Assembly (NCBI GenBank): GCA_051294375.1
Contig: CM119271.1
Span: 676,721 to 740,720 of the forward strand
Source: Paraspadella gotoi
Taxonomy: Eukaryota; Animalia; Chaetognatha
DNA: 64,000 nt
Direction of reading: 5' to 3'
Part shown: positions 17,136 through 64,000 of the stretch, piece by piece
How the letters are laid out: each line of letters starts with the position of its first letter
Position numbering within the stretch: the first letter of the stretch is position 1
Program-made: the position numbers and the translations under genes
The notes under the pieces: model-generated
Databases searched by the model: none
What the model was told of the DNA's origin: nothing
What the model saw: only the letters and a program-made list of their open reading frames with translations

Positions 17136-17180
<45 letters not shown>

Positions 17181-20499: not shown

Positions 20500-20561
20500 G
20501 AAATTGTTACAACCAAGATAAAGATTATTCATTCATGCAATAAATAAGCTATTTTGCACCT
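20500..20561 (-). repeat. Family S diverged copy
   Basis: GAAATTGTTACAACCAAGATAAAGATTATTCATTCAT...AAATAAGCTATTTTG is the reverse complement of the family S 3' block. Confidence 0.6.
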
Positions 20562-21889
20562 AAATTTTAACATTTTAATGAAACTAGCCCATTCATTTTA
20601 GTAGGATATATATTTTTAACAAAAGTAAGACTAAGAAGTGATCATGGAGTTGAATACGTTCTGGAGACTTATGGGAAATGAAGAGGAAGAAGATGAAAAA
20701 AGTTAGTTTTTTTTACGGGAAAAAAAACATTAGGACGGTGATAATAAAGATCTTAAATACGCGTAATTGGGTAACCTTACTATTCTACGTCCGAAACCAA
20801 CCTTAGCTACCAACGGTCGGTGGTTTGTTAATCCATTATATTTTGTTTTCCTTCTAGTGTCGTTTCAGTTTGCGCATTAATACACACTTTTTTTGCACAG
20901 TAATACAGTACCGGAAACCTAGAATGTCGTAAGTCTGTACATGGAATAACTTTTCCATTTATAGGATAAATGGCTTTAGGATTTTATAGGAAGTTGTCTG
21001 GATGTCTGAATTTTTCAAATAAATAATCCTAAACCATTTAAAAATGGGGTCAAAAAAAAGAATTTAAAAACTTGCATAGCTCTGATATGTTTTAAATTTT
21101 TTTCTTAAAATTTTGCTAACAAGAGGGTTTGTAAACTTCTGTAGAAATTTTTGCTATATTTATCAGTGCTGATATTTCAGATGGGTCATTTTTTCAATGA
21201 TACATAACTTCTCTATTTGTAAATATTATGGTTTTAAATTTTAGTAATAGGTGGGCCTTGGGTAGTCCTGCAATATATATGAATATATATGAATTGCAGT
21301 CAAAATTTTTTTAACAAAATTCAATTGTCAATCCTGCTAAAAATATTCTCGCAAATAATGTTATTCGTTGCCTATAAATCAGTTAAAACATACTTAAAAT
21401 AACCCTAAAGCAAAAAAAAAGGGTTGGGGGAAGTTTTTAAATAAACTTTGTAATAAAAAGTTTTTTAACTTTACCAATATTAAGAAACAAAAAACATATC
21501 ACCGATCGCAAAATCTCGGTTGGCGAATGTAAAAGTTAGCCGCTTAATTTATTGGATTAAATATTTGTTTTTATTTTTTTATTATTAAAATTGTTATTTA
21601 ATATTATTATTATATTTTATTATAAATTTTTATTATATTATTATTTTTTAAAATTTATTTAAATTTCGTTTTATTGTATATTGAAATTGTTTGAAGCAAG
21701 AAAATTTTAATAGTTTTTTAAAAATAGATTATTTTTCTGCTTATATTAAAGTTAAAATATATTTGTTTTTAATATTTTTAAAAGGTTCATAGTTTATAAA
21801 TGTTAATAAACTTTTTATTCTTTAAATATTGCTTAAAATATTTTAATTACTATATATTTAAGCTGAGATTTAGTTTTAAACTTATTTTT

Positions 21890-23421: not shown

Positions 23422-23766
23422 ATCGAAAGCCGAGTCTATTCGTCGTCGCTCGCTAATTTTCTCCACCTTTATCCTTTTGTGTGTGAATAATACTTACCTA
23501 GCAGCCACATTGTCTCTCGGATGTCACGCTTTTTTGACAAAATAAATCTGTGGATATTTTTTTTTAAATCTCCAATTGAGTTAAAACCGTGGGCGTCTGA
23601 GCTTTGTTTCTGGATCATCGCGCGCTCTCGCTCCTTTTTCGCTCCGCGTCCTATTATTTATTTCTACTTTACACTGCGACACTTTGCGTTGTCCCCGTTT
23701 TGCCCATCGCTCATCGACCTAACCCCCCCAATTTTTTTTCCTGACCTTTTTGTCCATTCCAGTTCC

Positions 23767-26700: not shown

Positions 26701-29700
26701 TGATGAAGAATTATTAGTAATATCTTGTCGGCATAAGGTGAAGTGAAGACGACATTTTCTAAAACTTCTCGTAGGCCTTCTGCCGACCCCCTACCAACAA
26801 ACGAATTACATGTACACGGCCAACGCCGCCCAAGCTCAGCCGACCCACGTCGCGGGACAAGTCGAGGGAGTAGTCCCACCCGCCGCCTCTGCCGCTGCCC
26901 CTCATTACGTCATCCAACATCCCGGGGCCGGAAGGAACTCGCCCCTCGTCATTATTCCGCAGTGCGGGAATGCGCTTCAAGTCGCTGGTGAGTTTGTTCG
27001 AATTGATTTAATTCGTTGCGATTGATTGTAAAGCTGGATGCAATAACTTCAAACGTCTAAACCAAAATCAGGTTCACAAGTTGGGGCCGCGCACATGATC
27101 CAAGGTCAGCCGACAGCAATCACGGTCAAAGGGGGTCAGGTCATCCCCGTCGTCATTTATCAGCCAAAGGTAAGGGTCGTTTCGACGATCGAAATTAATG
27201 TCGATCTTGTGGACGCAACATGCTGAGCTCTTTTTTTATTCAAGCAACAACAACAGCCTCAACCACACCAACCGGAACCAACGAGCAAAGGAAACGGACG
27301 CGTCGACATCAATGGCGAGGAATTCGCTCGCAATTGGCTCGTCGCCAACTACGAAGCCGGAACCTCCAACGAGCACATCGCCAGGAACGCTCTCTATCAG
27401 GTCTTTTTTTTCTCTCTCTCTCCCCTTTTTTTTTGTTCGTTCGTGGCTCTGCATTTAAATTTCTTATCGGAGATTTTGAACAAGTTATCCTCGGTTTGTC
27501 CGTCCAGGCGTATTCGGACGCTACTAGGGCATACGGACTTTTGAAGAACGAGAGCGTCACGAGCGGCGCAATCACCAAACTGGTTAACGTTCTGTGGCCC
27601 AGCGTCGTAGTCAGGTGAATTATTTAGCATGTATTTGACAGCTTTTACATAGATGGTTTGTAAAATTGTAAGTTTTAATATCAGTTGACTTTAATTTTCT
27701 CGATCTCTTCGTTTTCCAGACGAATTGACGACGGATCCGGTCAGCAGCTCCACCACGGCGGTCTCCGGAAAAAGGCGGTCCCGTCCCCAATGCCGCCCCT
27801 CCCGCCCAAACACCAGCCCACTACGGCTGGCCCGGCTACGATAGGATCGACCCCGGCCCGGCAGATTCTCACCGTCTCAACTCAGTCCCAGGGCAGCCAC
27901 TCGTCCGGCTCGGCCCAGTCCAGCCCGGCTCTGTCCACATCTCAGGTGCCGACGGAAGGATTCTTCGTCGCCGGAGGGAGAAACCATCTTCACTCAGGAC
28001 AGCTTCGGCAGCAGCCGCATCAGTTGCAGCAGCCGCAGCAGGCCGTCAACGAAGTCTTCGGACTCAAAAATCCCGCGGGAGTTCAATCAGAGAAAACTAG
28101 GTTCGTCGAGCTCGAATTTTTTATTTATAAAATAAAATCGTTGCATCTTTCAGGAATAAGTTTTTGTATTTTCATAACGAAAATGAGGCGAAACATGTCC
28201 GACTATGAATTGTCATTAAATTCGTTAAGAAAATACAAAAACTGTTATTCCTGAAATTCCCAAAATAACGAAAAGAAAGGAAATCAATTACAATCGTTGC
28301 ATCAAAAAAAAAATTCGTTAAATTGATAAAAGCTGAAATAGATTTGACCGAATTAGACGTAGTGTAGTTTTATTTTTAGTGGATATATCTAGCCTTGAAA
28401 AAAAAAAATGATCGTTCATGGTCTAGAATACGGTGCAACTCTATTCTATTCTCTAAACCTCGTCTTTTCCTTTTTCTCTCCCCCAAGGGACTCGAATCTC
28501 ATCAAAAGTCTCCTCGCCAGTAAATTGACGACGAAGATCGAAAATCCCGGAAATTCTTCGCCGCGATCCGATGTTTCCATCGTGGCCACGGCGCTGCATC
28601 AAAGACAGCCTCAACAACAACCCCTCCCCCAGCCCGCCGTCGACTCCACCTTCCCTCCCAACTCCCTTAAAACTTACGCTCGAGGAGCGACGAAGCTCCC
28701 CGCCGAGCGTCACGCGATCAACCATTCGAACGACGTGGGCGACGCCCACTCGGACGCTTGCAGCGAAGACAGTCGTCACAGCGTGACCTCAATGGACAGC
28801 GGAAAGGGCTCGACCGTCATCCCCTCCACCTCCGTCTCGCCCGAGAGCCATCCTGTGGTGCCGACCTCCCAGCCCGGCTCCACCACGGGCGCTTGCGTCG
28901 AGGAAGCGCCCGCCGCCGCCGTTCCCGTCAAGTTCGAGTCGACGCTCGTCAAAAAGATGCTGGCGGGCGTGGTGGATGATAGCGCTTCCAGTGCCTTAGA
29001 GACGGTCGTCAAGAAGGAGAGCTTCGATGTGGTCGTCAACGGTCACCCGGAGACGGAGAACGAGAGCGTCGTGAAGAGCGAAGAGGATTCGACGGTGAGT
29101 AAACTAGAAAATATGAGGAAACAATGTGGAAAAACTGAGGAAGAAGTCCAGGCCAAACGGTCCTTTGCAATTAATGGGAAAAGGAGTGGGTAAAACTCGT
29201 TAGTGCTTGGTTGTGATTGAATTATAGAATAACAAATATTGATAGTCTGAATGGTGTTGCTAAGTTTGTATTTTCGAATTTAAAACGGTCAAATCATATA
29301 GGCTACTGGACATTAACTGCTGGCCTTAATAAATTTTGTAAAAAATTACATTAAGAAAAAAAAAATAGTTGTATTAATTTCTCCCATTCAACATTTCAAG
29401 AACGCCGTCCGCGTCAACGGCGTCGCGGAGACGAACGGCACCGACGTTGACGTCGCCAACTTCCTCTCCAATGGAACCGGCGCCGTTTCGGATCAAAGAC
29501 TTGGCGCCAAGAGATCCTTGGATAAAAACTCTGTGGAGAACGGGGAGCCGAGCGTGAAGGCGATGAAGGTGGAGCCGGAGTCTGTTGTCAACGGAGACGT
29601 CGTCGTCGCGGAAACGAAAGCCTTTCCGAATCAGGGTCGACCCCTCGTTTCTTCGTCGACTCCGCCCTCGGCCACACCGGACGCGTCGGCGTCCCGTCTC

Positions 29701-30843
29701 TCCCAGCCGCATTCTCAAACCACACAACAACCCTCGACGCCAATCGAGCAACCGCTACAACATCAACCGCATCAAAACTTGCAACAGACCCAACAGCAGC
29801 TGCAACATTCACAACAATTTTCTCAACGGCAGGTTATTACTCAGACTGCGCCGTCTGGTGCCACCATCATCGTGCAGCATCAACAGCAGCCACCGACTCC
29901 ATCGGGAATGTGTAGTACAGCGCCGCCCCGCGTCTTCGGCGCCGCAGCCGCCGCTGGCCCCAACTCCCCGTCCTCCCAATCGGAGTCTTGCCCGTCTTCG
30001 TCGACGACGACGTCGGCCGAATATTTCTGCGAATGGAGTCGCTGCGCTCGCGTCTTTCGCTCGCCGAAAACCCTCTTCCACCACGTGTGCACGGACCACG
30101 TGAACTCTCGCTTCAAGGAAGGCAACTGCCTCTGGGGCGCCTGCGATTCCATGCGGCGCAAGCGGTGGTCGCTCGTCAGCCACCTGCAGGACCGGCACTG
30201 TAACGAGCAGGCCCTGAAGTTGGCCGCCCTTCGGCGCCAGCACCGACTCAAGTTCGGCGCCGTGCCCTCCCACTTGCGTCCCCCGGCCCCAGCGCCCCAT
30301 CCGGGCTACGCGCCCAACGCCGCCATGCTGGCCATCAAGCGTCACTCCCATCTCCCACCGCTGGCCGAGTTCGCCTCCGAGCAAGAGGGTCCCGTGACGC
30401 GGGACATCCGCCTCACCGCCGCCATCGTGCTGAAGAACCTGGCTCGCCATTGCGAGGCCGCGCAGCGGCTGGTGTTGCGCCACGAGCGCCGTTTGGCCTC
30501 AGTGGCGTTCCGTTGCATGGAGGCGTCGAACAACGTGGCTCAGTGCCTGGCGCACATCCCGGCCTGGATGCGGGGCTCCAAACGGTTCGATTCGGAAATC
30601 GGGGAGAAGGGAGGAGAGGAGGCAGGGGAAAGGCAAAGTGAAGAGGGAGAGGAAGATGAGGAGGAAAGTCCCGAGGTGGGGGAGGCGTCACCCGAGAGAT
30701 CGAGAAACGGAATGGGCGTGACTGGAGGAGGGGCGTTGACTGCGACCGGAACCGTCCGCGGCGTCGTCGAGGGTGAAGTGGAGATCCGCGAGGCCAACGA
30801 CGACGACGACGAATCACAAACTATCGTCATTGCAACGGATTAG
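23767..30843 (+). CDS. ARID2 (Bap170): AT-rich interactive domain protein 2 (PBAF subunit), ~1615 aa, 12 exons
   Basis: Exons 23767-23944, 24436-24612, 24701-25737, 26042-26207, 26384-26668, 26775-26987, 27072-27169, 27245-27400, 27508-27614, 27720-28100, 28488-29094, 29401-30843. They encode the ARID domain (IDLFKLYNTITELGGWTKVN...LKLIYARHLWPYE), SALPNEVDFGLN, ILRNLSF, an RFX-like winged helix (EFARNWLVANYE), SNLIKSLLASK, two C2H2 fingers (CEWSRC...HVCTDH; CLWGAC...HLQDRH) and EGPVTRDIRLTAAIVLKNLA. Introns 1 and 5 are GC-AG. Confidence 0.93.
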
Positions 30844-32550: not shown

Positions 32551-35500
32551 CTATCCCCAGCAGGAACCAAACTTTCCCATTTTTCTTCGCTCCGTTGGGG
32601 AATTGAAATCGAGGCGCACCTCCTTGTCGAGGTCCCACTCGGGGGATCGGAAGCGGACCTTTTTCGACACTTTGGCCCATCGGCGGAACATGAGTTTCTC
32701 GTGGAAGAATCGATGGCCGTTTCCCGAGTATTGGCAACTTTTCCGAAAATGGAGGGGCGGGTGTTTTGTTAAATTCTCAAAAGCTATTTGTCTTTTGAAT
32801 CTGGACTGGATGTTTCAAGGCATTCCCTTTCTCTGACAAAATGATATTATATTAGGATCGTGCAAACTTTCAAACGAGATTCTAACTCTCTAGTTTATTA
32901 ACTGCCAGATCATCTTTAAATACTTTTGTACTCTGGCATTGCATAAAAATAAAAAAAAAGAGACGGTTATTAAATTGATGAATTTCGTAGTTTGCTTGAA
33001 TAGCGAATAGTTACCCGAGGTAATGTTGGCATTCCGTTGTCCCATACGGTTCCCAGTAATGGTAGGGCATAATTTTTTCCTTCATAGCTTGTTTGGAGCT
33101 AGTGCCGATTTTTATGGAGGTAGCATAAAATAATGTGAATTTTTTATTAGTCTACCAGCTTTTTCTTTAAACAGTTAATTTAATACCTAGAACGAGAAGA
33201 GCTTTCGTTCCTGACGGAATTTCGGTCAGACAATTGCCTAATATCATGAGTAAATATTTTTTATTTTATTAATTATTTAATGATAATTCTTTTATTCCCT
33301 TCCCCTCCATTTTTTTTGTTAATTTTTGTTTCTATTCGTAATTTGTCATTCCTTCTTTACGATAATTCTACCTGCACTGATTCTCGTCCGGAATTCCGTA
33401 AATGGTGATGTTCTTGCAGATGGCCATCGTCAGCAACAGCGCCGTGTAGCCAGTTGACATATAGACTCCTGTCGTTTCCCTAAGGCGCCACGAAGCATTT
33501 TAAATCGTATAGTAGTTATATATTAAATTATCTCACGCAATGGGGTGAGTTAAAACTTCACCGACAAAAAATAGGGAGTAGAAACAAATTTTTGCGGCTT
33601 GCGCGCATAGTGTTAAATATTTGCCTATAACTGGCAATACTATTTGAAACAACTGATAGCGATATATCCATTTCGGCTAATTTTTACATTCGCCGACCGG
33701 AATTTCTCGGTCAGTTATTTTTTTCCGCTTTTTATGAAAGATAGAAATCTTGATACAAAAAAAAAATATACTGATAAGGTGAAGAGACAGTAATAATTGT
33801 TATATTGAACGGTTCTGTCACTAACACATAAGCTTCAGATCAGGCTGTAACACCGTGTTACAGGCGGGTTAAGCGACTACCGGGCTAGAACCCCGGACCT
33901 TTGGGGTGGGAGGCGAATGACTTGCCTCCAACACCAATGGCCGCTGATGAACGGTTGGTGGATTTTAGTCCACCATGCATTCCCCCCCTCCCATAGGGAG
34001 AAGTCTGTTGCATCTCTTCAGTGAATTGTTGGTGGAAAGTTCGTCACCAAGTTGAGTGTCGCCTGATGTTGGCGGAAAGTGCATCGCCAGGTTGAGGCAT
34101 GTTACCTGAAAGGGTTGTTGCTGTTGTGTTCGGAAGTCGAGCTCACCAATGAAGAGACAGTAATAATTGTGATGTGTTAGTGACAGAACCTTTCAATATA
34201 AGCAGTCTCTGAACTTCGGATCAGGCTTTTACAGGCGGGTTAACTGCTTGGCGACCAACGGGCTAGAACCCCAGACCTTTGGGTTGGGAGGCAAATGACT
34301 TGCCTCCGGCACCAATGGCCGCTGATGAACGGTTGGGGGATTTTAGTCCACCCTTAACCCAATTGTTAACCGTTATATAATAATAATAATAAAAATAGTA
34401 ATTAAAATAAATTAAACAATTATTCGAACAAATAATAGATAGTAATATACGGAAATATCTTTTTTTTAACTTAAGAAAAATGAATTAATAAAAAAAATAT
34501 TATGAAATTGGTACAACCAATATAAAAATTATCCATTCATTTAATAAATAAGCTATCTTGTCCCTGCACAAACCGAGACAAAGTTAGAGGGAAAACGAGC
34601 AAAAAAGTATTATTTAACAAAAGACAAAACCGCTCTGTGCTTACCGCTTCAAAGGCAGACCGGTCTCTTTCTCAAAAACCGCGGCGTTTGTTTCCAGCTG
34701 TTTGTAGTTCATGTAGTAAAACCTAAGGAATATTGTTCCTATTAAATAGTTTATTCTTACTCCCCCCGACCCTCCCAAGTTAATGTACACACAAGTACAG
34801 GGAAACAAAAACGAAAAAAAATGTAACAGCTGAATCTGGTTCTTTTTTCTGTTACTTAAATGAGTTAATCCCTGAATGTATCTCCTAAATCCTTAACCAT
34901 TAACCCTAATCCTTAACCTAACCTTTAATATAATTATCAAAATCATAAATTGTATTTAAGTTGAAATGGGTGATTATGGGAAAATAAGCCATCACTTGAT
35001 ATCGGTGTAGTTGTGTTTCTTGACGAAATCGATCATATCGCTCTCGATCGATTGTCGACTCTTCAGAATGAAAGGACCCCATACGATCACGTGACGAGGC
35101 CTCTGTGGACCCACCTTTTAGATTTAATAACAATAGTTGGGAAGATAATATTTTTATGCTTTTAAATATAAATAATCTTCATTCTTTTAATATTGTAAAT
35201 TAAGTCTTCCCGATTTTTTCTGTTTGATGTTTAATTCAATATGGCGGAGAATATAGTGGACTATTATATTTTTACCAACAAAGTGATCCTGTCGTTTTTG
35301 ATCTTGGACCAGGATGGATGCCCGACGAGGCGGACGGTCGTCTTGGATCCGACGTCGGAGGTGTGGCTCAGCGTCGGGGCGTGGTTCAATCGAAACACGC
35401 AATCTTTAAATTTCATAAAATGTACTAAATACAATTATTTGGAAAAATGTATTTAAAAGCTCGTATAAAAGAAAGAGAGTCCTCGACAGAGAGGAGAGAG

Positions 35501-38500
35501 ATAAAGAGTGTTTGGAAGAGAGAAAGAGAGAGAGATCATATTCAGTCTCATATTCATCATATTCATATCATGATATCAGATCATATCAGATCATATCAGA
35601 TCATATTCAGACTTTTTAAATCCTCACCAGTGGCGTCGATGTCTGCCCCGACGCCCGATTCGATCAGATGTCCGGAATTCGTAACGAGGGCGCACGAGGA
35701 GCATTTGAGGGACAAAGGCTGAAAAGAGGAAGAGACACCGATATTTTTAGTTGCGCCGCGAGAACTCGTGGAGAAAGCAACTCGGTCACTTTTCGGTCGG
35801 TAGGTCGGTCGGTCTGTCCCAATTATGTTAGAAAGGCTAATAATTTTATCAATTTAAATTATACTATATAGGATTTGGAAGGTAAGATTTTTAATGTGTA
35901 TATATATATGTGTATATATATATATATGTGTGTATATATGTATTATGTATCATACTTGTATCACTTTAAAAAGCGGTCATAAGACCGGAAATTTAAGGTT
36001 GCAAAACTTATAAAATATTAAGGTATTTTAATTAATATTTGGTATTTGGCAGACTAGCAGAGTATCCATAAATATTGAATGATTATTGTATATATATTTT
36101 TATGTGTATAATCACGTGGCTACGTAAAATTATGGTCATATAAAAATATAAAATAAATAAAGCATATTACGCATAATATTTAGTAGTTGTATTTGAAACT
36201 TTGCAGATAAGTCATTGACCATTGGATATTTAATATATACATAAATTTCTCAGTTATACAGTGATTTGATCATTTTTAAATATACGTGAAAAGAAAGTCA
36301 CTGCGGCGCAACATATTAAAAGGACCGTTTTTGTTTTTAGACAAGTCAGTTTAAATGTTATTTTGATTCGCTTATTCCTCGAAAATAATTAAAGAATAAT
36401 TAAAGAATTTAAAATGAATTAAACACAACAGCTTGACAATTAAACGAGTTAGGGATTTACTTCACCATCCTGATTCTATCATTATATTCCGCCCGTAACT
36501 CCTCGATTCAGTGTCTCCCTCAATCCCATATAAGTATTTGACAATTTCCACGCAGCAATCTCACCCTCAGCTCCGCTTTTTACCTTTCCCTGAGGAATAG
36601 AGAGATATCCATCGAGCCCAGGAATGTCGAGTCTCGAATCCGATTTCAATTTTTTCTTGAGAATCAGAAAGTCTGACATCGTCGGCGATTCGAAACCTCG
36701 CGCGAACAGTTTCCGGTTCCGCTCGTTCTTCATTTTTCTCCGTTTCGTCCTCGCAGCGCTTATATTTTAGGGTATGATAATTACACATTAGGAGGGGGAG
36801 GTTTTTTTAATCTTTACAAACAAAGAATAATTATGAGCTAGAAATTAGTAAAAAGAGTGTCTGCAGACTGCAGTGTCTCAAGCGTACTGTCACTTTGGAC
36901 TATGGTAAAAATCTGCCAGGAAAGGCCTGACCATCAATTATACTCTGGCGACATATTATTATGTAACTAAGTAGCAGAAAAAAAATCATTTGGGTATTTA
37001 AAAAAATTTGAATTATTGAAAGTTGATAAAAAGTTATTTTCAAATTTTACTGATAACCTATGATATAATCGTTTCATTTTAAAAATAAAGACATCATATA
37101 AAACTGTAAGAACTTCTGGATCCAACGAGTACAGTAAATGCATTTTTTATAACCGTACAGATTCACTGTATTCATTTGTAAAGTGACAGTACGCTTGAGA
37201 CACTCTGTAGCTACGTAATATAAGAGATATCACTACGCGTTCGATAAGGCTGTTCTTTCCATTCAGAGAGCGTAATCGGTTTTTTCTCCGAACGGTTTTT
37301 AGCCCTGGTCGTAACAGTCCTTAATAAAGAGTGTTGGGCCGGTAGTTAATCCTGCCTCCCGATCCGGAGGCAACTGACAGAAAAATCTCCCAGAACCACT
37401 GGGGTATGGGTACGTTAAATGTATCGCTATCCTCTCGGTCACTTCACTGGATCCGCTTAAGTCAAGCCATGTGTCACTTAGGACAGTTTTCGATGATATT
37501 TTTTTTTTTTTACTTACCCATTAAGGGTAGAATAATTGAATTTTCTGGTTTCTTCGGCGCGGATGAGATTGGAAAAAGTATCGACGGCGACAGAGGTGAG
37601 GTTGTTGTGGAAAGACTTGGGGTCTGAATGGATTTATAAGGTAAGAAATGTTTCGATTCTAGCGATCTCGGATTTGGGATTTTTGAGCGCGAAAAGAAAT
37701 TATCGAATATCAATTTCTCTAAAGAACTTTTGTATGATATTCAAAAATGTTATTGAAGCTCAAAATCTCAACTTGGTCGCAGCAGTTGGTTAACTGGTTT
37801 CTGCATCTGCTTTGAAAACTTCTTATATCACTTAAATTTTTTGTAATAAGGATTGCTTACCGGGTGCTTTTATTACGTTCGTACGGAATCGCGATAAGAA
37901 AGAATCTATGGTTGAAAGACCTGAAAAAGAGAAGATAAGTTCGACCATTGACCGATTGCGGAGTACAATATGAGGAGCTGTCCTTTTATACAATTGAAAC
38001 ATTCGTTGAAACATTATACCACTGACTGAGAGTATGGATTAAAAGCTTGCAGGGTCCTGCTATAAAATTGGTACAACCAATATAAAATTTATCCATTCAT
38101 TTGTTATGTTATTATTACTTTGTAAGAGGGATTGAGGCATTAACCCACCATAACCATAATTAAATGAATTGATAATTTTTAAATTGCTTTACCCTTGAAT
38201 TTCGGTCTTTTTTTTCTTTTTTTTTCGTTCGTCATTTTTTTTCCGTCATCTCTCTCCGACTAGGTTTTCTTTCATTTCTTACTAACAGCATTTAGGTTCA
38301 GATTCCTATTGATTTCTAGGGGGAGGAGCAATNNNNNNNNNNGCTCCGACCCCTATTTCTATAGAGATTTGCTATTTTGTCTGCACCCATCTATTTTTTA
38401 CTTGCATCGCTTTGCACAAAATAGTACATTTGCATGTTTTCAACATGTTTTTCCAGAGGGCACAATAAAGAAGGGATTTTTTTTAGGACAAAATAACACT

Positions 38501-40102: not shown

Positions 40103-40175
40103 GCCCCTGTGGCCTAATGGAGAAGGCGCTGGACTTCTAATTCAGAGATTGCGGGTTCGAGTCCCGCCAGGGGTA
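40103..40175 (+). tRNA. trnR-TCT: tRNA-Arg(TCT), intronless
   Basis: 73 nt. Acceptor stem GCCCCTG/CAGGGGT, A box TGGCCTAATGG, anticodon arm CTGGA-CT-TCT-AA-TTCAG, T arm GCGGG-TTCGAGT-CCCGC, and a TTTT terminator 3 nt downstream. Confidence 0.95.
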
Positions 40176-44655: not shown

Positions 44656-47600
44656 TGATATAAATTCGTGGATAAAGACAGAATAAGATAGGGAAGCCAG
44701 GTACTCTGGGAGTGAATAAACGAGACTGTGAGAGAGTCTTGATTGAAAGCTTGCAGGGACCTGCTATGTCATTATCTTGTAAGAGTGATGGAGGCCTTAA
44801 ACCACCAAAGCCTGTCCAAAGTCAGGGGCAAGATAGCTTATTTATTAAATGAATGGAAAATTTTTATATTGGTTGTACCAATTTCATAAAATAGAATAAG
44901 AAAAAATTACTTATTAAAAATATCAAAAAAAGATTTAAGATAATAAAAATTTAAAAAAACAATTGCTATTTTGTTGAAGAGCAGGTGCAAGTAAAGATCT
45001 AGTGGGTACAGATAAAGTTTATTTTGAATTTTCTTTTGTCTTACAAAAAGCTTCCTTCTTTTTAGAGCCCTCTAGTAGAATAGAGTGAAAATACAAAGAA
45101 AATTTAATTGGACCGTTCTTTTGTTTCAGAAAAATATATTAAAACCTCTGCTCTGGTGAATATACTCAAACTAAATTTTATTGCCATTTTGTTTTTAAAA
45201 ATGCTTTAGTTTATACCGCCTTGTTTTTTGGAATCAAATTCCCTATTATTTTTCGGCCGATAGAAAAATAAAAATTTCATCGAATACTGCTAATCCCTAC
45301 CTCTGGTTTATTAAGACTAAAACATGTAAAAATTTGCTATTTTGTATAAAGCAATGCAAGTGAAGATAAAATGGGAGCAGACAGAAGAACAAAATTCTAT
45401 AAAAATAAAGGGAAAATGCTCAATACTCATAGTAGAGAAAGTAAAAGATAAATCCGCCGAGTAGGAAGGAAAATTCATATAAATATATAAATTGGGAAAA
45501 AAGGGGAAAAAAAAAAGAAATTGTACAATTTCAGGGTTTAAGTAAATCATTTAGTAAATAAGTAAGTAAAAAAAGTAAATCAAGATATCTGACTTTCGCA
45601 AACACACTTTCGCAAGAAAAACTTATGTCACTCCCACCTTTATCCACGCGCGCCAACGTGTAGGCGGCGCTCGTCGTCATCGTCATCTCGCTCAGTCGCC
45701 GGTTTAGTCGCTCGATCTCCTCCGCGCGCGACCTCAATGTCAACTCCAGCGCCGACGCGGGCGGCTCCGCCATCGGAAGCACCGACTCAGTCATGGAAGC
45801 ATCGAGCGGGGCTGGGGTTGCGGCTGCGGCTGAGCAAGAGAAGAGGGAGGTCGACATGGAGGTAGGGGCCACTGGGAGAGGAAGAAGACGGGAAGGCGCA
45901 CGACCAGGTCATAGTGGAGAGAGAAACTGGATAGAAGTTGGGGGGAGGAGAAGAAGTTGGGGGAGGGAGAAGAGAAGTTGGGAGGGAAAGAGAAGTTGGG
46001 GAGGGAAAAGAGAAATTGGGGAGGGAAAAGAGAAGTTGGGAGGGAAAAGAGAAGTTGGGGAGGGAAAAGAGAAGTTGGGGGAGGGAAAAGAGAAGTTGGG
46101 GAGGGAAAAGAGAAGTTGGGGGGGAAAAGAGAAGTTGGAGGAGGAAAAGAGAAGTTGGAGGAGGGAAAAGAGAAGTTGGAGGAGGGAGAAGAGAAGTTGG
46201 GGAGGGAGAAGAGGAAGTTGGGGAGGAGAGAGGAAGGGGGAGAAGAGAAGTTGGGGAGGAGAATAGAAAGTGGGGAGGGAGAAGGAGAAGTTAGGAGAGA
46301 GTTGGGGAGGGAAGAGAGAAGTTGGGGAGGAAAAGAGAGTTGGGAGGGGAAAAGAGAAGTTGGGGAGGGAAAGAGAAGTTGGGGAGGAAGAGAGTTGGGG
46401 AGGGAAAAGAGAAGTTTGGGAGGGAAAGAGAAGTTGGGGAGGGAAAGAGAAGTTGGGAGGGAAAGAAGAAGTTGGGGAGGGAAATAGAAAGTGGGAGGGA
46501 GAGGGGAGGAGAGAGAGAGGAGTTAATCGTGATGATTAAAAAAAAAGTATTATTCGTGTTAGTAATAAATAAAATTGAAATTTCCACCTCCCGCGGTCGG
46601 ACTCCCCGGGGTCGGGGTGGGTCCGCGGACGCTGGACGCGTCACCGAAGGCGTCGACGAAATGGGAGGAAGAATCGTCGTCGTCGAGGTTGGAGGCGAGA
46701 TTGAGGGGAGATGAGGAGAGGCCCAACCGAGACTCGAGTTGCTGGAGAAATGTGAAGAAATAAATGGGAATTAAAGAATGGAAAGAAATAAAAGAGAGAG
46801 AGAGAGAGACAGAGAGAGAGAGAGAGACAGAGAGAGAAAAGAAAGAAAGAAAAAAAAGAAAAAAGAAAGAAAGAAAGAGGGAAAGAATAAGAGAATGAGA
46901 GAGAGGAAAACAAATTTGAGACGCGTTATTTTCAATTTTTATCGCTATGCAAAAGAATCATTTTAAAAGGGGCTTGTTAATCATAGGAAGTTAAGTTAAG
47001 TATTGAAGCTTAGCAAACGAGACTCACAGATCACCCCAGACTATACCTGAATCCTGGCATGAGCCTTCGCCAATTCCTCCTGATGATCCTGGTGAATGCC
47101 AGAATCGGCCGATTGCGTCAGGGCCGCCTGCAGCCCCGACATGGCACCGGCTGAGCCTAGGCGCTCTCGGCCTAAGGATGAAGAAGTGGAATAAGTTTTT
47201 TGAATTTGTTTATTAAAGATACTACTCGACGATTATTTCCTCACCGTTTGTGGGAAAGTCGAGCGTTTGGGAGGCGGCGGCGACGCCGTCGACGACCTCC
47301 TCCTCCTCCTTCCTGAGACGCGACCGAAGCGTGGCGATGACGTCGTCTTTCTCTTTGGCGATCTTGTCCACAGCCTCGTTGAAGACCTTCTGTTTCTCCG
47401 CCAGCAGTTTGGCGCGCTGGAAGCGGGAGAAAGGTTAGCGGGGAAACGGGAGAGGAAGAAATAATAACTTTCTTTAATGATATAGAGTGATGGAGGCCTT
47501 AAACCACCAAAGCCTGTCCAAAGTCAGGGACAAGATAGCTTATTTATTAAATGAATGGATAATTTATATATATAAACATATTATTTTTAAAAATCGCTAA

Positions 47601-50600: not shown

Positions 50601-53600
50601 AATAAATATGGAGTAATGCGGAAATGACGACAGCTTTTTAACATCAAGGGGCAAAAACACATTCGATCGAATTAATACGAAGGAGCCGATAACTGAAGAA
50701 TTTTATTTTGTCCGAATAGTTTTTAAATGTGGTACAGCAAGCCTCAAATTAAAACATTTTTGCCACTAAATATTAAATAATTAAATAAATTAAATAATTA
50801 AATAATATGCCTCTAATAATGACCTGTCATGAGCGGCGGCGACGGCGACGGCGACGGCGACGAAAGATTAAAATTAAGGCCGTGATCGAGCGCCTCGTCG
50901 CCTTCGGGACCCACAAGCGTCAACACGTGCGGGTGGGTGGTTGAAGCCGCACCGACACCAGACTCGTCGCTCGGCGTCGTCTCGCGCGAAGACGACGGCG
51001 TCACGGTTTTGCTTCGATCCTGAGACGTCACGCCGCTAGAAACGATGACGGGCGGCGACGATTCGGCTGGAAAAGGAAGAGACAATTGAAGTAAGAGATA
51101 CAAAAAAGATTAGCCGAAACTCAGATATTTTTTTTACTCTGTCTCCTCGCAGCAACATCGGCCTTGAGCTCGTCCTCGGTGGGCGTCGTCCCCGGCGTCG
51201 GCAACTTCATCAGCCCGGGATCGAGGTCGAGCGGTTGGACCAAGTCGCCCGACAATTCCTCGTCCCAAGAAACCGGCATCATCGGTTCGGGAACGATTCC
51301 GTCGACGCCGAAAGAGTCCCGGACTTGGGGTCCCTCGGAGGCGAGCGCCAAGGACATCTCGTGAGGATCATCGGTCTTTTTTTTCAAATAAAAATTTATT
51401 ATTAATTATTTCATACTGTGGCGGTATATTCACACCGCCTCACGTCCACCATCGTTCAGCCAAATCCATTGGCTCAGAGGGGGAACACACCATCCCAGGC
51501 GTAGTGTTCCATCCACAGTCCTAACGACTTCCCTCTGCGTTGGCAAAGCGAGACCGTCCAAGGGTAACCGCGCCAGTGACTGGAGGCGTCACTGAGGGTC
51601 GGAAGCCCCCAAAGCCAACAGTGAGATGCCCCATCCCAATGGGCATCACAGGCAACCCGGCTGTTGCCATAATACACTTTTTTATTGAATGAATTGATAA
51701 TTTTGATTTTATGTACATTTTATGAAAACGAGACTAGGCTAAGACTATGTATGTTACTATGTACGATGGAATGCTCTTTTTTTTTTTAATATTCTACTCA
51801 CGTTGAATGGTCGATCAGGATCGAGGACCTCGATGTCGGAAGCGACGAACGACGAAGGGACGGACGATTGATTTCCAGATGCAGAGAACTTGATACGTGA
51901 GCATAAGAGTCACTTAGTGACACTAAGTACAATACTTCTCGGCCCATCAATTCCCTCAACTAACCTTTTCGGTGCCAGCGTCCACTAGCGGCGCGGCGGC
52001 TTCTTCGGCGATATCCGTTGGATCCATCGGTTCCATCGAAGACGTCGCCGACACGAACGACGCCGCCTCTAGGATTTCCGTCGGGATTCTGAGTAAAGGT
52101 GGGTTTTCTTTCGAAATAAACAAACTAATACGCGGACAATTTTTCAAAAATTATTGAGATAAAAGATGATTAAACCGACCTTAGCACCTCTTCCATCTCC
52201 GGCAAGGCCTCGGCGAGGCTGGCGATGTCTTCGGCGCTGATTTCCGGCAGATCAACATCGAAAGGCGCCGGCGGTTTTGCGGCGAAGGTCGGCAGCTTGG
52301 CCTTCAGCCCTTTGGTTTGGGTAGGCAGAAATTCATTATAATTAGACATGGTTTTTTTTTTTTTTTTTGTGTTTAGATAAACGAAGATTTATTTTTATTT
52401 GAAACATTAAACACTGTTAAAGTAGAAATAAATCTTCTGAGGCGACTTACCACCGGTCTCTCTCTCTAAACCCTTCCTCTCTCCGCCGGTCAATCCACAC
52501 GGTCACTTTGCTCTGGCTTTGGCAATGACCTTAGATTGACCGGACACAGCAATAGGGCCGAGGAGACCGTAAGGTCAAGTTGGTCCGGGCGATGATAAAA
52601 GTGGATCAGAAGAGAGCTCGTCTCAATTCTTTTCAACTTCTCTTACATTGTCACAATCCCTAATCTTTTTTCCTATCTTTATTTTTGTCTTCTACATTGG
52701 TGATCCCGACTAAAAGATAAGTAACCTTCCGAATCATTTACAACTGATCGATTGGTTTATGATTCGATTGATTGAGTGATCGATTATTTTATTTATCAAT
52801 CGTTAAATAGGAGGTTTAATTAGTAACAAAGATTCACTCACGGCCTATTTCGCGATCAGTTTATTTTCGTTTTTCGGCGTATTTTTCTTAATTTTTTTTT
52901 TGTTTTTCAATCTCCAAAAATTAAACTATTTTCGCAATTTTTAATTCTATTTTTCTCAGTCGCGCGCGTCCCTCATTACGTTTCTTCCGACGTCCAACAT
53001 TTCTCATCGCCAACCCTCAAGTTGGTCCGGGCGATGATAAAAGTGGATCAGGAGAGAGCTAGTCTCACTTCTTTACTACTTCTCTTACATTGTCACAATC
53101 CCTCATCTTTTTCCCTACCTTTTATTTTCGTCTTCTACACTTCCTTTGTTAGTAATAATTATACATACTTTTTGAAGCGACGATATTTACTGTCTAGTAT
53201 TTATTGTTATTTTATTTATAAAGACCTGGAAATAGAGATCTGACGACGAAGTGAAGGCCAACCGTCGATTGGAACTCTTTCCTTCTATGCGACTCTTGAC
53301 CCGTTTGAGAATTGGATTCCTATTCAGAGAAGGAAAAATAAAATTTGTAGAGTGTTATTCAATATAATTTAATATAATTTAACATCGATCGAAGAGAACC
53401 TTGGAGATTCCCTCGGCCCACTTGCAGAACGTCTGGGAAAAATGTCGCCGCATGAAGACTTCGATGGCGGATCGAGCGTAGACTGAAGGCGCATAGTGTA
53501 TCTGAGGACAAAAAAAAAATGTCTAAGACAAAGTCGAAAGCGAAATTCGTTGTGAAATTAAACTACAAACAATTTTCGAGGAGCTCTTTAGTCTTTAGTT

Positions 53601-56600: not shown

Positions 56601-59600
56601 TTTTTCGGCATTTTAATGTGAAAATCGAAAAATAAAATTTAGATATCAAGAAACTTTGGCCTTTTGTGATTCATTTGAGCTGTGTCTCATTTATGTACGA
56701 CAAAAAATACAAGAGTTCCATGCAAAAGAAAATGAGTTGTCTAAAAAAATGCTTCCTTCTTTTTTATCTTTTTCATATCTACACTTTTCATTTATATTTA
56801 TTTCCGGTTCTTTTTTATTACTTTTGAGTTAAACCATTACTATTAAAAATTCTTTCTTTTTCTCAGTCTCATGTCAAATGGTTATTGCATCATCTCCATT
56901 AGGATAGATTCAGGGATAAATATTAATTCATATGTCAAAAAAAGAGCGGTATTAAAAATACATTAATGCTGTAAATGCTCCAGAATATTCTTTTTATATT
57001 GTAAAGTATGAATAAAAGTTATAAGGCTCCGGGTAATTTTTCTATGAGCAAAGTTATCATTTTCATTTACCTGTGGATATATTATCAGAACCAAATATTA
57101 AACAAGTACAAAAAAAAAAGAAAAATTAAAATTTGGTTGAAATGAAAAACAATGTATCATCACATTATGCATCAACAACTCAAGCCTGGTTTACTTTATA
57201 GGGGATCAATTTATTTTCACTGCTTGCTAAGGACCATTTTTTGCCCTAAATCTGATAAAAAAATCTTAAAAGCATAAGGATCGTTGCAATCACATAAAAA
57301 AAATCTGGATGACGACAAATTTTGATACTAAAAAAAAAATAAAATTTAAGAAAAGAAAATTAATTTATAAACAGAAAGAAAAATTCTATTTTGCGATTGT
57401 CAATTAAAAAAAAATAATAAAGTACCGAGGAAAATTAAAATTCCAGTTTCTGAAAAAAATATATTTTTTTTGATCATTGATAATTGTCATTGTCAAATAA
57501 ACTGATCAGCAGATGCAGCCCTGAGAAAAAAATTTTAGAAAAAAAAAAATTTATAAATTTTATTTTGCGATTGGCAATTTAAAAAAATAATAAAGTACCG
57601 AGAAAAATTAAAGTTAGTTTCTGAAAAAAAAAGGGAAAAAATAATTTTATTGTTAAAAATAAACTAATCAGCAGACGCGGCCCCAGAGAAAAAAAAAAAC
57701 CCAAATAAAAACCCGATGTTGTGATAGCAAAATGATAACATGCGATGCTTAATTTTACGAGTTCAATCCTAATTCAATTTTTTTTTTAATAAAAACGCAG
57801 AGAGAGAGAGAAAAAATCAAAAAAAAATCAAAAGGCAGCAGCAGAAGCAGCAGGAGAAAAGAGAGAAAAAGAATAAGCCCCTGCAGAGTCAGCTGCAGAC
57901 TCGTTTTTTTCCCTATGAATCAGTGACTAAGGAAAAGAGAGAGGGAGAGAGACATATAATTAAAAGAGAAAAGAGAGAGAGAGAAAGAAATATAAAAATA
58001 AAAGAGAGAAAATTTGTTGATTTTGATAAAACGTAAACAAAACATATTTAATAACTGTCCTGACTCAATTTTAAGCACATCGATGATGAGAAGCTGTATA
58101 TAAATTTTCAGCTTCATACACCAAAATTTAATCATAAAAAAGGCGATCTATAATTTGGAACGCCGACGACAACGACGACGACGACTACGCCACTTATGCG
58201 CTTAGCGTTTGCGACGATAAAAATAAACTTTATATAAAAAATATAATTAAATATAATATATAGATAAATAATACAATTTTAACATTTTAACATTTATTTT
58301 TAAATTTTAATAAAAAATTTTAAAGTCTAATATAGTAAAGAGTAATCTTGCAATTTTTCATAATAAATAATAATAATGTACTAAAAAGAACTTTATGATC
58401 CTCATAACTTTTTCTAAGATTTTTCTTTTGAGCTTCAAGATTTAATTCGTTTTCGGGCTTATCATCGTTTTCTAAAAAGACATACCTTTCGTCATCGTTC
58501 GACAACGACGTCCGCGACAGCAAATTGGGCAGCATCGGCACTTTGGACAAGACGAGGAGATCGGTTTTGAAGTCGTTCAACACGCTGAAGATATTCGCTC
58601 TTTCCGCCAAGTAAGCAGAGTATTTCGCTGAGGTGTATGAATTAAAATTTCAAAAAAATCATGCCGCTATTTTTAAAAAAAAAAGGAAAAGAAGGACCAT
58701 AAGACGGACCTCGAAACATGGAGTTCTTTTTATAGAAATCAGCCAAAATGTCGTCAAGATTCGCCAAAACCGCCGCCCAACCTTGATGCATCAAATGCTG
58801 GTCGTGGACCAAATTTTCGCAGATTCGCAACTGTGGGATGTTTAATTTTAAAATAAGCCTCAATCAAAAAATCAATAAATTGATAGAGCAAAAAATCGAA
58901 TCATCAATTGACTATGGTAGATTAAAATCCACCAACCGTTCATCAGCGGCCATTGGTGCCGGAGGCAAGTCATTCGCCTCCCAACCCAAAGGTCCGGGGT
59001 TCTCGCCCGGTGGTGGCCTAGCAGTTAAGAGGGACGGGGCACTTAACCCGCCTGTAACACGGTGTTACAGCCTGATCCGAAGCTCAGGGACTGCTTATAT
59101 TGAACTGTTCTGTCATTAACACATAAAAATTATTACTGTCTCTTCATTGGTGAGCCCGACTTACGAACACCAGCAACAACACTTTCAGGCGACATGCCTC
59201 AACTTGGTGACGAACTTTCCACCAACAACAATTCACTGAAGAGACGCAACAGACTTCTCCCTACGAGAGGGCGGGGGATGTATGGTGGATTAAAATCCAC
59301 CAACCGTTCATCAGCCGGAGGCAAGTCATTCGCCTCCCAACCCAAAGGTCTGGGGTTCTCGCCCGGTGGTGGCCTAGCAGTTAAGAGGGACGGGGCACTT
59401 AACCCGCCTGTAACACGGTGTTACAGCCTGATCCGAAGCTCAGGGAATGCTTATATTGAACTGTTCTGTCACTAACACATAACAATTATTACTGTCTCTT
59501 CATGACTAGCAAAAAAAAAAACCAAGTTGCATTTAAATAATATGTTTAAATTCAACCAAACATGTCTGAACTTCATGTCTCCAACAATATAGAAAATAAT

Positions 59601-60233: not shown

Positions 60234-61937
60234 TTTTATCGTTGGTGATAATCAAAGGCTGGTAAAGTATTCTAAGTGGTAGACTAGGGCGACTAAGGGG
60301 GAAGGGGAGGGGAAAACCCCGGGGCTCAAAAGAGCTAAGCTTCTGTTCAGTATTTTTCCATATTGTATTTGTTTATGGGATTAAGAATTATGATTAAGGA
60401 GGCAGTCATTTCAAAATCATCTAGAAATTTAAGTGGAAAAGTTAATTCAAATTCTTTCGAAAAATTGAAAAAGTATTGAAATTCTAAAGGAATGCGAACG
60501 AACTAAAATATAATAAACGTCAATCATCTGGAGCTCGAAATCTTTATTTGATGACTAAATCTTAGAAAATAACGACGAAATACAGAGACAAAATTGCGTT
60601 GTCATTTATTGCGCAACTGTTATTATGGCAAACGTAATAAAAGCTTTTGATTTAAAAAATTACAATAGGAAAGAAAAAAATACAAAAACCATAAAAAAAT
60701 ATAAAAAAATTCAAAATGCTATTTAAAAATATAACTTTAATCGACAAATCACACAATAGATTATCATTATGATGAAAATTAAAAAGATAATAAAAATCAG
60801 GATTCAAAAAATATCGAGACGGGCAAAAAATTCGATGACTGCGGAGATTTTGGCCGAATAAAGAGACGTGGACAGAGGACAAAGGACCGTTTCTAATAGT
60901 AACGGTACCAGGGAGAGAGGGAGACGGACAGATAAAGAAGAGAACGAAAGAGCGAGAGCGAGAGAAAGAGAGAGAGCGATAGAGACAGGGAGAAAGAGAA
61001 TCAGGTTGAGAGTACTGAATCAGCTGAGCCTCTTTCGTCAACAGACAACAGACAAAAAGTCAGAAGCGGCTGCAACCATCGCTTCTTTTCTTTTTCTTTC
61101 TTTTCTCATTTATTGTGACGGAGGGTGAGGTCTGAGGAGTACAAATTGATGATGCATATTAAAAGAAAAAACATTTTCCAAATCTATTAATTTAATGTAT
61201 TCAGTTTTACAAAAAATGTTAATTTTGATCATCGGCGATGTTCATTTGTGTCAACAGTTTGAGAAATGTCCGCTTGGAATTCGTGGCTTGTAGCTCTTGG
61301 AATAATCTTAACAATTAAAATCATAAACTTATTTAATAATTTGATTTTAATGTTCGTCTTTATAAAAATGTGTCTCAGATTAATATCCTTGCTTTTTACA
61401 CTTAAAAATTTGATTAATTATCTCAAAATTTTTAAACCAAAGTCGTCGACATCGTTTCTGGATTTTGATTGGTGGAGCTAGAATTGAACACGAAAAATCA
61501 GTCGCTGATTGGTCGTTACTTAAGCTTTTCGTTTTTAATAATGATTATTAAAATAGTTTTTGTCAGAAAAAATATTAAAATTAACTCTTTAGTGATTAAT
61601 TTCGATGGAACGCTTTTTGAGATATTGGGCAAGCCAATTGTCAAGATTTTGTAGGAGCAAAAGTTTTTATTTATTTTTATTTATGTTAACTATATTCGGA
61701 TTTTAAAACGGTGTTTAAGTGAAGTGACGATCAAGTCATAACTTCGTTCTTACGTATTAACAACGTACTTGTTTTTTTTTACAGCCAGCTTGCTAATCTA
61801 TTTACCAAAATTCGTCTATAATACTTAATTTAGTATATAGATTAAAAAAATTTATTTGCCTAATCCTAAGCAGTGCCTCGTTGTATACGTTAGTGATTCC
61901 AATAGAATGTCTGCTTCTAACAATCTCTGTTACGAAA
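60234..61937. promoter_or_regulatory. Divergent (head-to-head) RB1CC1/DHX36 intergenic region, likely bidirectional promoter
   Basis: 1.7 kb between opposed ATGs. Three CCAAT-box matches (GATTGG ~61467 and ~61507, GCCAAT ~61633) and a GA-rich block at 60910-61000. Confidence 0.45.
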
Positions 61938-64000
61938 ATGAGCTTTAATTCCTACCGAAGCAGCAGGTCATCAGGATGGAAACAAGGAAGAGAAGGAGGG
62001 GGCCGAGGTGGAAGAGGCGGGCGGGGTGGTATGAAAGGTTACCATCAAGAACGCCCAGAAGACGCGGATGACAATGAAGGAGCATCTTTTCGTCACCCTC
62101 GGGGTTTGAAAGGGAAGGAGATAGGATTATGGTACGCCCGTCAAAATCGCCCTCCAAAAAACATGACGCCGGAAGAAACCGCCGAGTGGCAGTCGGGAAA
62201 GGCCAACCGGCAAAAAAGAAGGGAAGAGCGTCAAGAGACGCGGACTCGAATCGGCGTCGACTTGACATCCTTTCAAAAGACGCTCGTCCGCGACGCCCTC
62301 TCCGCTTTCGCCGGTTCAAACGAAAACCCGTCCCCGCGAGTCGCCTTCGCCCCAAAAACGTTCGTCGATGAGGATTCCTGGTTCTCTCGTCGACCGCTAG
62401 AGAGAGACGCGGCGTTGGACTCTCGTCTAAAGGCCGACTTGGAGCGGATGGAGAAAAGCTCTTCTTACGAGGATTTCCTGGACTTTCGCCGCCGACTTCC
62501 CGTCTTCGAAAAGCGAGATGAAGTGATGCAGATCGTGGACAGCGACTCGCGCGTCTGCGTCGTTTCCGGCGCCACCGGCTCAGGGAAGACGACTCAGATT
62601 CCGCAATTCATCCTCGATGAAGCGTTGCGTCGGGGCGACGGCTCTGTCACCAAAGTAGTTTGTACTCAGCCGCGACGAATCTCCGCCATTTCCATAGCGG
62701 AACGCGTCGCAGCTGAGAGAGGAGAATCCTTTCCCACGGGAAACAAGAACAAGAAGAGAGTCGAGGGTAGCGTGGGCTATCAGATCCGCCTCACCAGCGT
62801 CATTCCCAGGCACGAAGGCAGCATTCTCTACTGCACGACGGGCGTGGTTCTCAAGTGGCTCGAGTCGGATCCCGATCTACGCTGCGTTTCTCACCTCGTT
62901 CTGGACGAGGTCCACGAACGCGACCTTCAAACCGACTTCCTCATCATCTGCCTCAGAGAATTGCTGCAGAGGTGCGACCATCTAAAGCTGGTGCTAATGT
63001 CGGCCACGTTGGACGCTCAATTATTTTCATCTTACTTCAACGATTGCCCCACCATCGACGTCCCTGGTCGCCTTTTTCCCGTTGAACGGATCTTGCTGGA
63101 AGATATCGTGGAGTCATTAAATTACGTCCCCCAGCGGCGTGACGGTCGCCGGAGCTTTCAACAGCTAGCGCAATCGCACGGCGGCGGCGCGGAGGGAAAG
63201 TCTCGGGCGAGAAACGAACTCTCTAGACGTCAGAGACTCAAGGAGGGGTTTTGGGAGAGAAAATCGCGAGCGGAACAGGGTCGATACTCTCGAGCGACCA
63301 TGGAGACGATGAAAGAATGGAGCGACGACATCGACTACGAACTCATTCACCTCATTGTGTGTCATGTGATCCGTGAGCGAGAACCAGGCAGTATCCTCAT
63401 CTTCTTGCCAGGTTGGGGGGAGATCAGCAAGTGCAAGTCTATCTTGGAAGGGTCGACCGTAATCGATCCAAGTCGGACTTGGATCATCCCGCTTCATTCC
63501 ATGATGCCCACCTCATTTCAACGGGAGATCTTCAGTCCGTCGCCGACGGGAAAAACTAAAATCGTCATCTCGACCAACATCGCGGAAACTAGCGTCACCA
63601 TCGAGGACGTTGTTTACGTCATTGATTCGGGTCTCCTCAAAGCGACAAGTTACGATCCTGACGCCAGCGTTTCCATACTGGCGCCGGAATTCGTCTCTAA
63701 AGCCAACGCCCGTCAACGAGCCGGTCGCGCCGGTCGCGTTCGTCCGGGGTTTTGCTTTCACCTTTTCTCCAGCTTCACGGAGGAATCTTTGAGCGAATAT
63801 CTCAAACCAGAAATGCTAAGGACGCCGCTCGAATCCGTCTGTTTACAGATCAAAGTTCTGCGTCGCGGCGACGCCTTCTCGTTCTTAAGCCAAGCGTTGA
63901 ATCCTCCATCGCCTGCCGTGGTGAAGCGCGCTGTGAAAAATCTTCGCCGCATGAATGCCCTCGACGATGAGGAAGGCATCACCACGCTAGGGTATCATTT
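61938..64000 (+). CDS. DHX36: ATP-dependent G-quadruplex DEAH-box helicase DHX36 (RHAU/G4R1); uninterrupted frame, 3' end beyond window
   Basis: Open frame from ATG 61938 with an RGG-rich N-terminus, the DHX36-specific motif HPRGLKGKEIGLWYA, GATGSGKTTQIPQFILD, CTQPRRISA, LDEVHER, MSAT, FLPGW, PLHS, STNIAETSVTI and QRAGRAGRV. Confidence 0.95.
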   Translation, partial: MSFNSYRSSRSSGWKQGREGGGRGGRGGRGGMKGYHQERPEDADDNEGASFRHPRGLKGKEIGLWYARQNRPPKNMTPEETAEWQSGKANRQKRREERQETRTRIGVDLTSFQKTLVRDALSAFAGSNENPSPRVAFAPKTFVDEDSWFSRRPLERDAALDSRLKADLERMEKSSSYEDFLDFRRRLPVFEKRDEVMQIVDSDSRVCVVSGATGSGKTTQIPQFILDEALRRGDGSVTKVVCTQPRRISAISIAERVAAERGESFPTGNKNKKRVEGSVGYQIRLTSVIPRHEGSILYCTTGVVLKWLESDPDLRCVSHLVLDEVHERDLQTDFLIICLRELLQRCDHLKLVLMSATLDAQLFSSYFNDCPTIDVPGRLFPVERILLEDIVESLNYVPQRRDGRRSFQQLAQSHGGGAEGKSRARNELSRRQRLKEGFWERKSRAEQGRYSRATMETMKEWSDDIDYELIHLIVCHVIREREPGSILIFLPGWGEISKCKSILEGSTVIDPSRTWIIPLHSMMPTSFQREIFSPSPTGKTKIVISTNIAETSVTIEDVVYVIDSGLLKATSYDPDASVSILAPEFVSKANARQRAGRAGRVRPGFCFHLFSSFTEESLSEYLKPEMLRTPLESVCLQIKVLRRGDAFSFLSQALNPPSPAVVKRAVKNLRRMNALDDEEGITTLGYH

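Follow-up and report, generated by a model that had tools for sequence, protein, structure and literature searches.

We describe a 590-bp element that is probably a non-coding, high-copy TRIM with a decayed, likely tRNA-derived predicted Pol III promoter inside its LTR, likely served by CsRn1-type Gypsy enzymes and representing a new family of the Helenus/TRIMp3 group. This element (copy 1) and a second copy (copy 2) lie in the 64-kb stretch of DNA that was analysed as a whole, hereafter the window, to which all positions refer. The features are collected in Table 1.

Structure and setting of the element

Copy 1 reads LTR-PBS-PPT-LTR between two TGAC duplications, which confirms the anatomy proposed by an earlier sequence-only reading of this DNA. 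The same reading had found no coding capacity, and in our Pfam search of the copy 1 ORFs no family was matched inside the element, the single match (E 0.12) sitting in the flank. The two LTRs of copy 1 are identical at 217 of 222 aligned positions, with a 12-nt gap in addition. Copy 1 lies antisense within an intron of RB1CC1/FIP200, and its flanking exons match RB1CC1 residues 44–80 and 135–166. Given its two LTRs, its length below 1000 bp, the absence of coding sequence, an internal part bounded by a PBS and a PPT, and interspersed copies with fixed termini (X1 contigs) and a target-site duplication (TGAC), copy 1 is almost certainly a TRIM.

Copy 2 is 74% identical to copy 1 across 641 columns, gaps included, and its internal part holds an additional repeat unit of ~44 nt; of this unit (59187–59230) copy 1 has one, while copy 2 and some contigs have two. 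No direct target duplication was found around copy 2.

Table 1. Features of the element, its second copy and the remainder of the window
Feature	Position	Strand	Remarks
Copy 1	58913..59502	+	590 bp
Left target-site duplication	58909..58912	+	TGAC; family edge at 58913 set by X1 contigs (n=147, unrelated flanks)
5′ LTR, copy 1	58913..59146	+	234 nt, TA...CA; loose contig ends at 58913 and 59146
tRNA-like block	58947..59019	+	Decayed; 20/24 invariants, no cloverleaf; missed by ARAGORN and Rfam
A-box-like motif	58954..58965	+	One mismatch, at tRNA position 14; canonical base there in a contig minority
B-box-like motif	58998..59008	+	Two mismatches in copy 1, one in copy 2
Internal part, copy 1	59147..59280		134 nt
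Primer-binding site	59148..59160	+	TGGTGAGCCCGAC; tRNA-Trp / CsRn1-clade type, letters as in PwRn1/AgCR
Internal complement of LTR 3′ end	59237..59245	+	9 nt; predicted U5 pairing, PBS enclosed
Polypurine tract	59265..59278	+	Followed by 2 nt, then the 3′ LTR
3′ LTR, copy 1	59281..59502	+	222 nt; A box hit by 12-nt deletion
Right target-site duplication	59503..59506	+	TGAC
Copy 2	33780..34355	-	Both LTRs score 21/24 tRNA invariants
5′ LTR, copy 2	about 34150-34355	-	
3′ LTR, copy 2	about 33780-33977	-	Carries ~30-nt inversion
Family B (second TRIM)	1-726; 51417-51671	-; +	255-nt LTR, TG...TA
Family B PBS	458-467		TGGTGAGCCC
Weak twister-P1 match	51571-51614	+	In family B LTR; 15.2 bits, E 0.6-1.7, gathering score 67
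Third LTR-like element	52575-53139	+	123-nt direct repeats, 92%; PBS TGGTGATCCC at 52698
TSC22 domain	17120-17470		
ARID2/BAP170	23491-30843		
Sialyltransferase piece	35599-35853		
tRNA-Arg(TCT)	40103-40175		Intronless; ARAGORN
DHX36-like helicase	61797-63998		One open frame of 734 codons

Abundance and termini of the family

Copies were assessed through contigs from four public runs of the same organism, mapped onto the element. The four runs yielded 17,355, 13,272, 2,459 and 1,088 mapping contigs, nearly all of them confined to the element; summed depth in such a mapping does not equal copy number. In all four runs loose contig ends pile up at 58913, 59146 and 59502, and in all four the flank letters listed at these three positions spell ATAT, a symmetric 4-nt target preference. 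For the 5′ LTR alone, run X1 contains 147 contigs that exit into unrelated flanks at 58913 and 121 that do so at 59146. Since contigs stop sharply at the termini and carry ATAT-like flanks, we conclude that the family is high-copy.

The same data settle where the LTR begins. A 6-bp duplication with TG...CA LTRs starting at 58915 was considered, as TGACTA stands on both sides, and was rejected because the contig ends pile up at 58913 (147 in X1, versus 15 at 58912). The edge is thus fixed at 58913 by the contig ends and their ATAT flanks, giving LTRs of the TA...CA type.

A few contigs link 59502 back to 58913. In a metagenome scan a 19-nt word of the LTR was found at 10 loci, and these matches are attributed to chance since none extends past 22 nt. 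Of the 40 family variants listed for 58947–59106, roughly 17 are CpG transitions when read by eye; the observed/expected CpG ratio is 1.29 for the whole window and 0.72 for the element, which suggests repeat-targeted methylation in a genome without CpG depletion.

The promoter boxes, their decay and their variation

The exact tRNA spacing claimed for the LTR holds: with T8 at 58954, C32-T33 falls at 58978–9, A37 at 58983 and G53 at 58999. The only feature behind the Gly-like label once given to the block is a CCC triplet. Its A box reads TGGTG...AGG, one mismatch from the general A-box pattern, and GGTTC of box B is found in all four LTRs; an A box and a B box paired at tRNA spacing occurred in 0.6% of 3000 shuffles. 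As had been reported, copy 2 carries the block in both of its LTRs, with the B box GGTTCTAGCCC. The promoter boxes proposed for copy 1 fare unevenly: the A-box-like motif of the 5′ LTR stands, but the B boxes of both LTRs (GGTTCTCGCCC) are damaged, lacking the invariant A of position 58, and the 3′ LTR has lost its A box to the 12-nt gap. Because the position-58 change sits in both LTRs, copy 1 or its parent must have been copied with a damaged B box. Across the family, the position-58 A is present in 89–99% of contig depth.

The stems are in a different state. In register, the block retains 3 of 7 acceptor pairs, 1 of 4 D pairs and 2–3 of 5 T pairs, and it refolds as a different hairpin, GGAGGC/GCCTCC; with its in-register stems mostly lost and an alternative hairpin formed, the block is not a functional tRNA. 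The GGCCAT/GTGGCC ends that had been read as an acceptor stem lie out of the canonical register and depend in part on the G at 59015, a letter missing from 97–99% of contig depth. The invariant positions, by contrast, are retained while the stems are lost. The deepest contig coverage of the LTR includes the block, and a one-off SINE insertion in a single copy, which the sequence-only reading had named as the case against it, is therefore excluded.

The figures for variation in X1 and X5 are based on the 40 listed of 48 variants. In X5, common variants occupy none of the 97 positions that span U3 through the B box, as against 8 of the 137 positions downstream (p 0.022); in X1 the corresponding counts are 3/97 and 11/137 (p 0.16, not significant). 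The common downstream variants include the acceptor 3′ strand. The contrast in conservation expected between the boxes and the rest of the LTR is thus significant in X5 but not in X1, and it does not set the boxes above the 34-nt U3, which has no minority variant among those listed. Leaving aside the change at 59004 that is private to copy 1, just two transversions are listed within the first 97 nt, at 58960 and 58970, which correspond to tRNA positions 14 and 24. At both sites the variant is the canonical tRNA base, making up 12.5% (X1) and 3.6% (X5) of depth at the former and 3.7% (X1) and ~0% (X5) at the latter, which supports both the tRNA register and the tRNA ancestry of the block.

Retention of invariants despite loss of the stems is the pattern of promoter selection, and this argues against the strongest competing explanation, namely that the element is a Pol II-driven TRIM, its RNA made from an LTR Pol II promoter or by host read-through, and that the tRNA-like block is the dead relic of an old SINE insertion. 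The heavy decay and refolding of the block are what such a relic would display, and among the listed variants the A and B boxes are kept no better than U3; moreover, both copy 1 LTRs have a damaged B box, a TATA-like word occurs near 59096, and copy 1 lies within a transcribed gene, though antisense to it. The B-box A is, however, intact in most of the contig depth, and the sole ATTAAA-like word needs a letter at 59290 that is missing from ~96% of X1 depth. We consider a Pol II-driven element with a dead block unlikely; on balance, it is somewhat more likely than not that Pol III remains the promoter at work.

No TTTT run occurs on the sense strand of either copy, as had been noted earlier, but as a signal this absence does not stand (P 0.08–0.16). 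Against dinucleotide shuffles, P is 0.086 and 0.076 when each copy is taken whole, and 0.16 when one LTR is taken together with the internal part; TTTT is also missing from 51 of 582 GC-matched windows. In the flanks, the first T4 lies 240 nt beyond copy 1 and 13 nt beyond copy 2.

Evidence for tRNA ancestry

We scanned both strands of the window (~128,000 sites) for 24 textbook tRNA positions at tRNA spacing, the list having been picked from textbook knowledge after the sequence had been viewed. The real tRNA-Arg scored 24/24, the top of the window, and was followed by the two copy 2 LTRs with 21/24, a score reached by none of 1000 shuffles of each. The 5′ LTR of copy 1 scored 20/24, which 9 of 1000 shuffles reached, while its 3′ LTR, with 17/24, is at background. 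The tRNA-finder check that had been suggested for the LTR came out negative: ARAGORN called the tRNA-Arg and nothing else in the window, and Rfam at E up to 10 reported no tRNA in either copy. A phage blastn search with the block, a weak test, returned 31 weak records, and the 20 of these that were listed include no tRNA.

These searches would be in keeping with a plain TRIM whose tRNA likeness arose by chance in a hairpin-rich, GC-rich LTR, since there is no covariance-model match and three unrelated sites of the window (25053, 57134 and 57717) equal copy 1 at 20/24. Chance would nevertheless have to account for the two copy 2 LTRs, which exceed all other non-tRNA sites and the 1000 shuffles, and for minority variants that shift toward the tRNA pattern; we regard it as very improbable. 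That the block originated from a tRNA is, in our judgement, highly probable.

A retrozyme-like element, whose LTR would hold a self-cleaving ribozyme that yields circular RNA, or a functional tRNA source has next to no likelihood: although the predicted folding is strong (z −2.68) and a weak twister-like match lies in another LTR family of the window, ribozyme families at E up to 10 are absent from both copies and the block has no cloverleaf.

Comparison with known elements

The sequence-only reading had known of no described animal equivalent. This claim of novelty fails because tRNA-bearing animal TRIMs had already been reported as Helenus (Kojima 2024, PMC10886601); the element is not a new kind. 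According to the parts of that paper available to us, Helenus elements are TRIMs with tRNA-derived LTR sequence, 311–1263 bp long and found in six animal phyla, with Helenus-2_SyJa, Helenus-1_MLe and LTR-11_DR among the named animal families; the animal families have 4-bp duplications and Gypsy-type primer sites, and a functional tRNA is judged unlikely. In the same parts, Pol III activity is described as not validated for any Helenus, Cassandra being the sole validated TRIMp3 member.

The likeness to Helenus, as far as these parts of the paper describe it, extends to the non-coding LTR-PBS-PPT-LTR design, the A/B-box block in the LTR, GGTTC in box B, the 4-bp duplication and the Gypsy-type PBS. 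Single features recur in particular families: a tRNA-Trp PBS in Helenus-2_SyJa and Helenus-2_SyUm from Synergus wasps, a 5′-placed tRNA block in the ctenophore Helenus-1_MLe, and a TA...CA LTR in Helenus-4_MusRap, the available data containing eight TA-starting LTRs (PMC10886601). TGGTGAGCCCGAC matches the tRNA-Trp PBS of Helenus-2_SyJa and Gypsy-32_NVi, as given there, at 12 of 13 positions. Differences from the entries available are also apparent. The host does not resemble any of the wasps, fish or bivalves listed there. The A box of the element is without TRGCY, a motif that most Helenus keep and that is typical, not defining (PMC10886601); and its B box is not followed by a T4, whereas by eye ~17 of 31 bivalve LTRs have one there and ~14 of 31 do not. 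Since ARAGORN and Rfam miss it, the block also appears more decayed than the Helenus LTRs with which it was compared.

Five words from the element gave no match in the accessible Data S1 of Kojima 2024, in which a word split by a line end could escape, and no similar LTR was found among the ctenophore, brachiopod, nemertean, zebrafish and bivalve Helenus entries available. Among the papers listed by literature searches, no other account of tRNA-bearing animal TRIMs was found. We regard it as most likely that the element forms a new family within the already described Helenus class, the tRNA-derived LTR sequence that defines this class having been detected here by the invariant scan and by neither ARAGORN nor Rfam.

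Cassandra and Ajax are likewise non-autonomous LTR elements with the promoter of a small-RNA gene in their LTRs, but their boxes are the A/IE/C boxes of 5S, whereas those found here are tRNA-type A and B boxes; Rfam at E up to 10 detected no 5S rRNA-derived sequence in the LTRs of either copy. The design that had been likened to Cassandra, an LTR-replicated miniature element with a tRNA-derived and probably Pol III promoter in its LTR, is well supported, without the TTTT and acceptor-stem arguments brought forward for it. Cassandra RNA stops inside the 3′ LTR, according to the available parts of PMC10886601, whereas read-through beyond the 3′ LTR is predicted for the element, and Ajax has 5-bp rather than 4-bp duplications. 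An 11-nt word common to Ajax LTRs and the element was set aside as chance-expected in a file of that size.

The PBS also has a counterpart among autonomous elements. The CsRn1 clade of Gypsy is described, in the part of PMC2582038 available to us, as tRNA-Trp primed, with the PBS TGGTGA(G/C)CCCG(T/A) and 4-bp duplications; the PBS letters of its members PwRn1 and AgCR are identical to TGGTGAGCCCGAC, including the G variant. Unlike the element, these retrotransposons are autonomous and carry Gag-Pol. They are candidate helpers, and we think it rather likely that a CsRn1-like element plays this role. No CsRn1-type helper was found within the 64-kb window.

Predicted life cycle and implications

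In the life cycle that we propose, TFIIIC would bind both promoter boxes, and transcription by Pol III would start near 58947, leaving a U3 of 34 nt. The RNA would cross both LTRs, the element having no T4 run, and would end at the first T run of the flank. Gag and reverse transcriptase of the helper would package the RNA, host tRNA-Trp would prime at the PBS, and a strong-stop DNA of ~200 nt would jump to the 3′ LTR; the complement at 59237–59245 may pair with U5 around the PBS. The plus strand would be primed by the PPT, and the helper integrase would insert the product at ATAT-like sites, producing the 4-bp duplication.

The element extends Helenus/TRIMp3 to one more animal lineage. It also illustrates that such elements can fall below standard tRNA finders yet keep their promoter positions; because decay outruns the finders while these positions stay, Helenus-type elements are probably under-counted. 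The great abundance of the family would make Pol III transcription of a Helenus easy to test.

A bolder scenario, possible but doubtful, is that a tRNA-promoter TRIM was born independently in this poorly sampled animal lineage and belongs, together with family B, to a guild of Pol III mini-elements, at least two in number, that depend on a single CsRn1-type helper, have no terminators of their own and are transcribed on into host DNA; it may in that case rank among the most amplified TRIMp3 families. If this were true, Pol III transcription of an animal TRIM could readily be tested for the first time in this system.

Other repeats and genes of the window

Exact matches to the Trp-type PBS number three in the window, against 0.12 expected. 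The solo LTR of family B is flanked by a 4-bp ATAC duplication. The leader of this family resembles that of the element (score 39, shuffle maximum 31), the resemblance being largely the PBS itself. Homology between the LTRs of the two families was considered and found not significant, with 134 of 500 and 9 of 500 shuffles reaching the score. The family B LTR contains a perfect A-box match and, 36 nt on, a short B-box-like word with one mismatch; its sense strand is without T4, which is not significant. UAA stands just upstream of the twister-P1 match, for which no closing-stem partner was found by eye. The interior of the third LTR-like element is AT-rich, and the element shows no clear PPT.

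Among the genes, the zinc-finger matches of ARID2 are 32–47% identical, the best being from an ostracod and a centipede and those from the named wasps and ants 34–42%. Matches of the DHX36-like protein, from fish and other animals, are at most 51% identical, and in a tree of 32 rows chosen from 199 matches the window protein sits on a long branch with no supported group.

Finally, another dispersed repeat, reaching ~200 nt in length, is present as at least eight pieces (2036–2234, 44687–44890, 47484–47571, 16965–17033, 34497–34566, 5702–5803, 20500–20567 and 1834–1920), one of which lies ~140 nt from copy 2.
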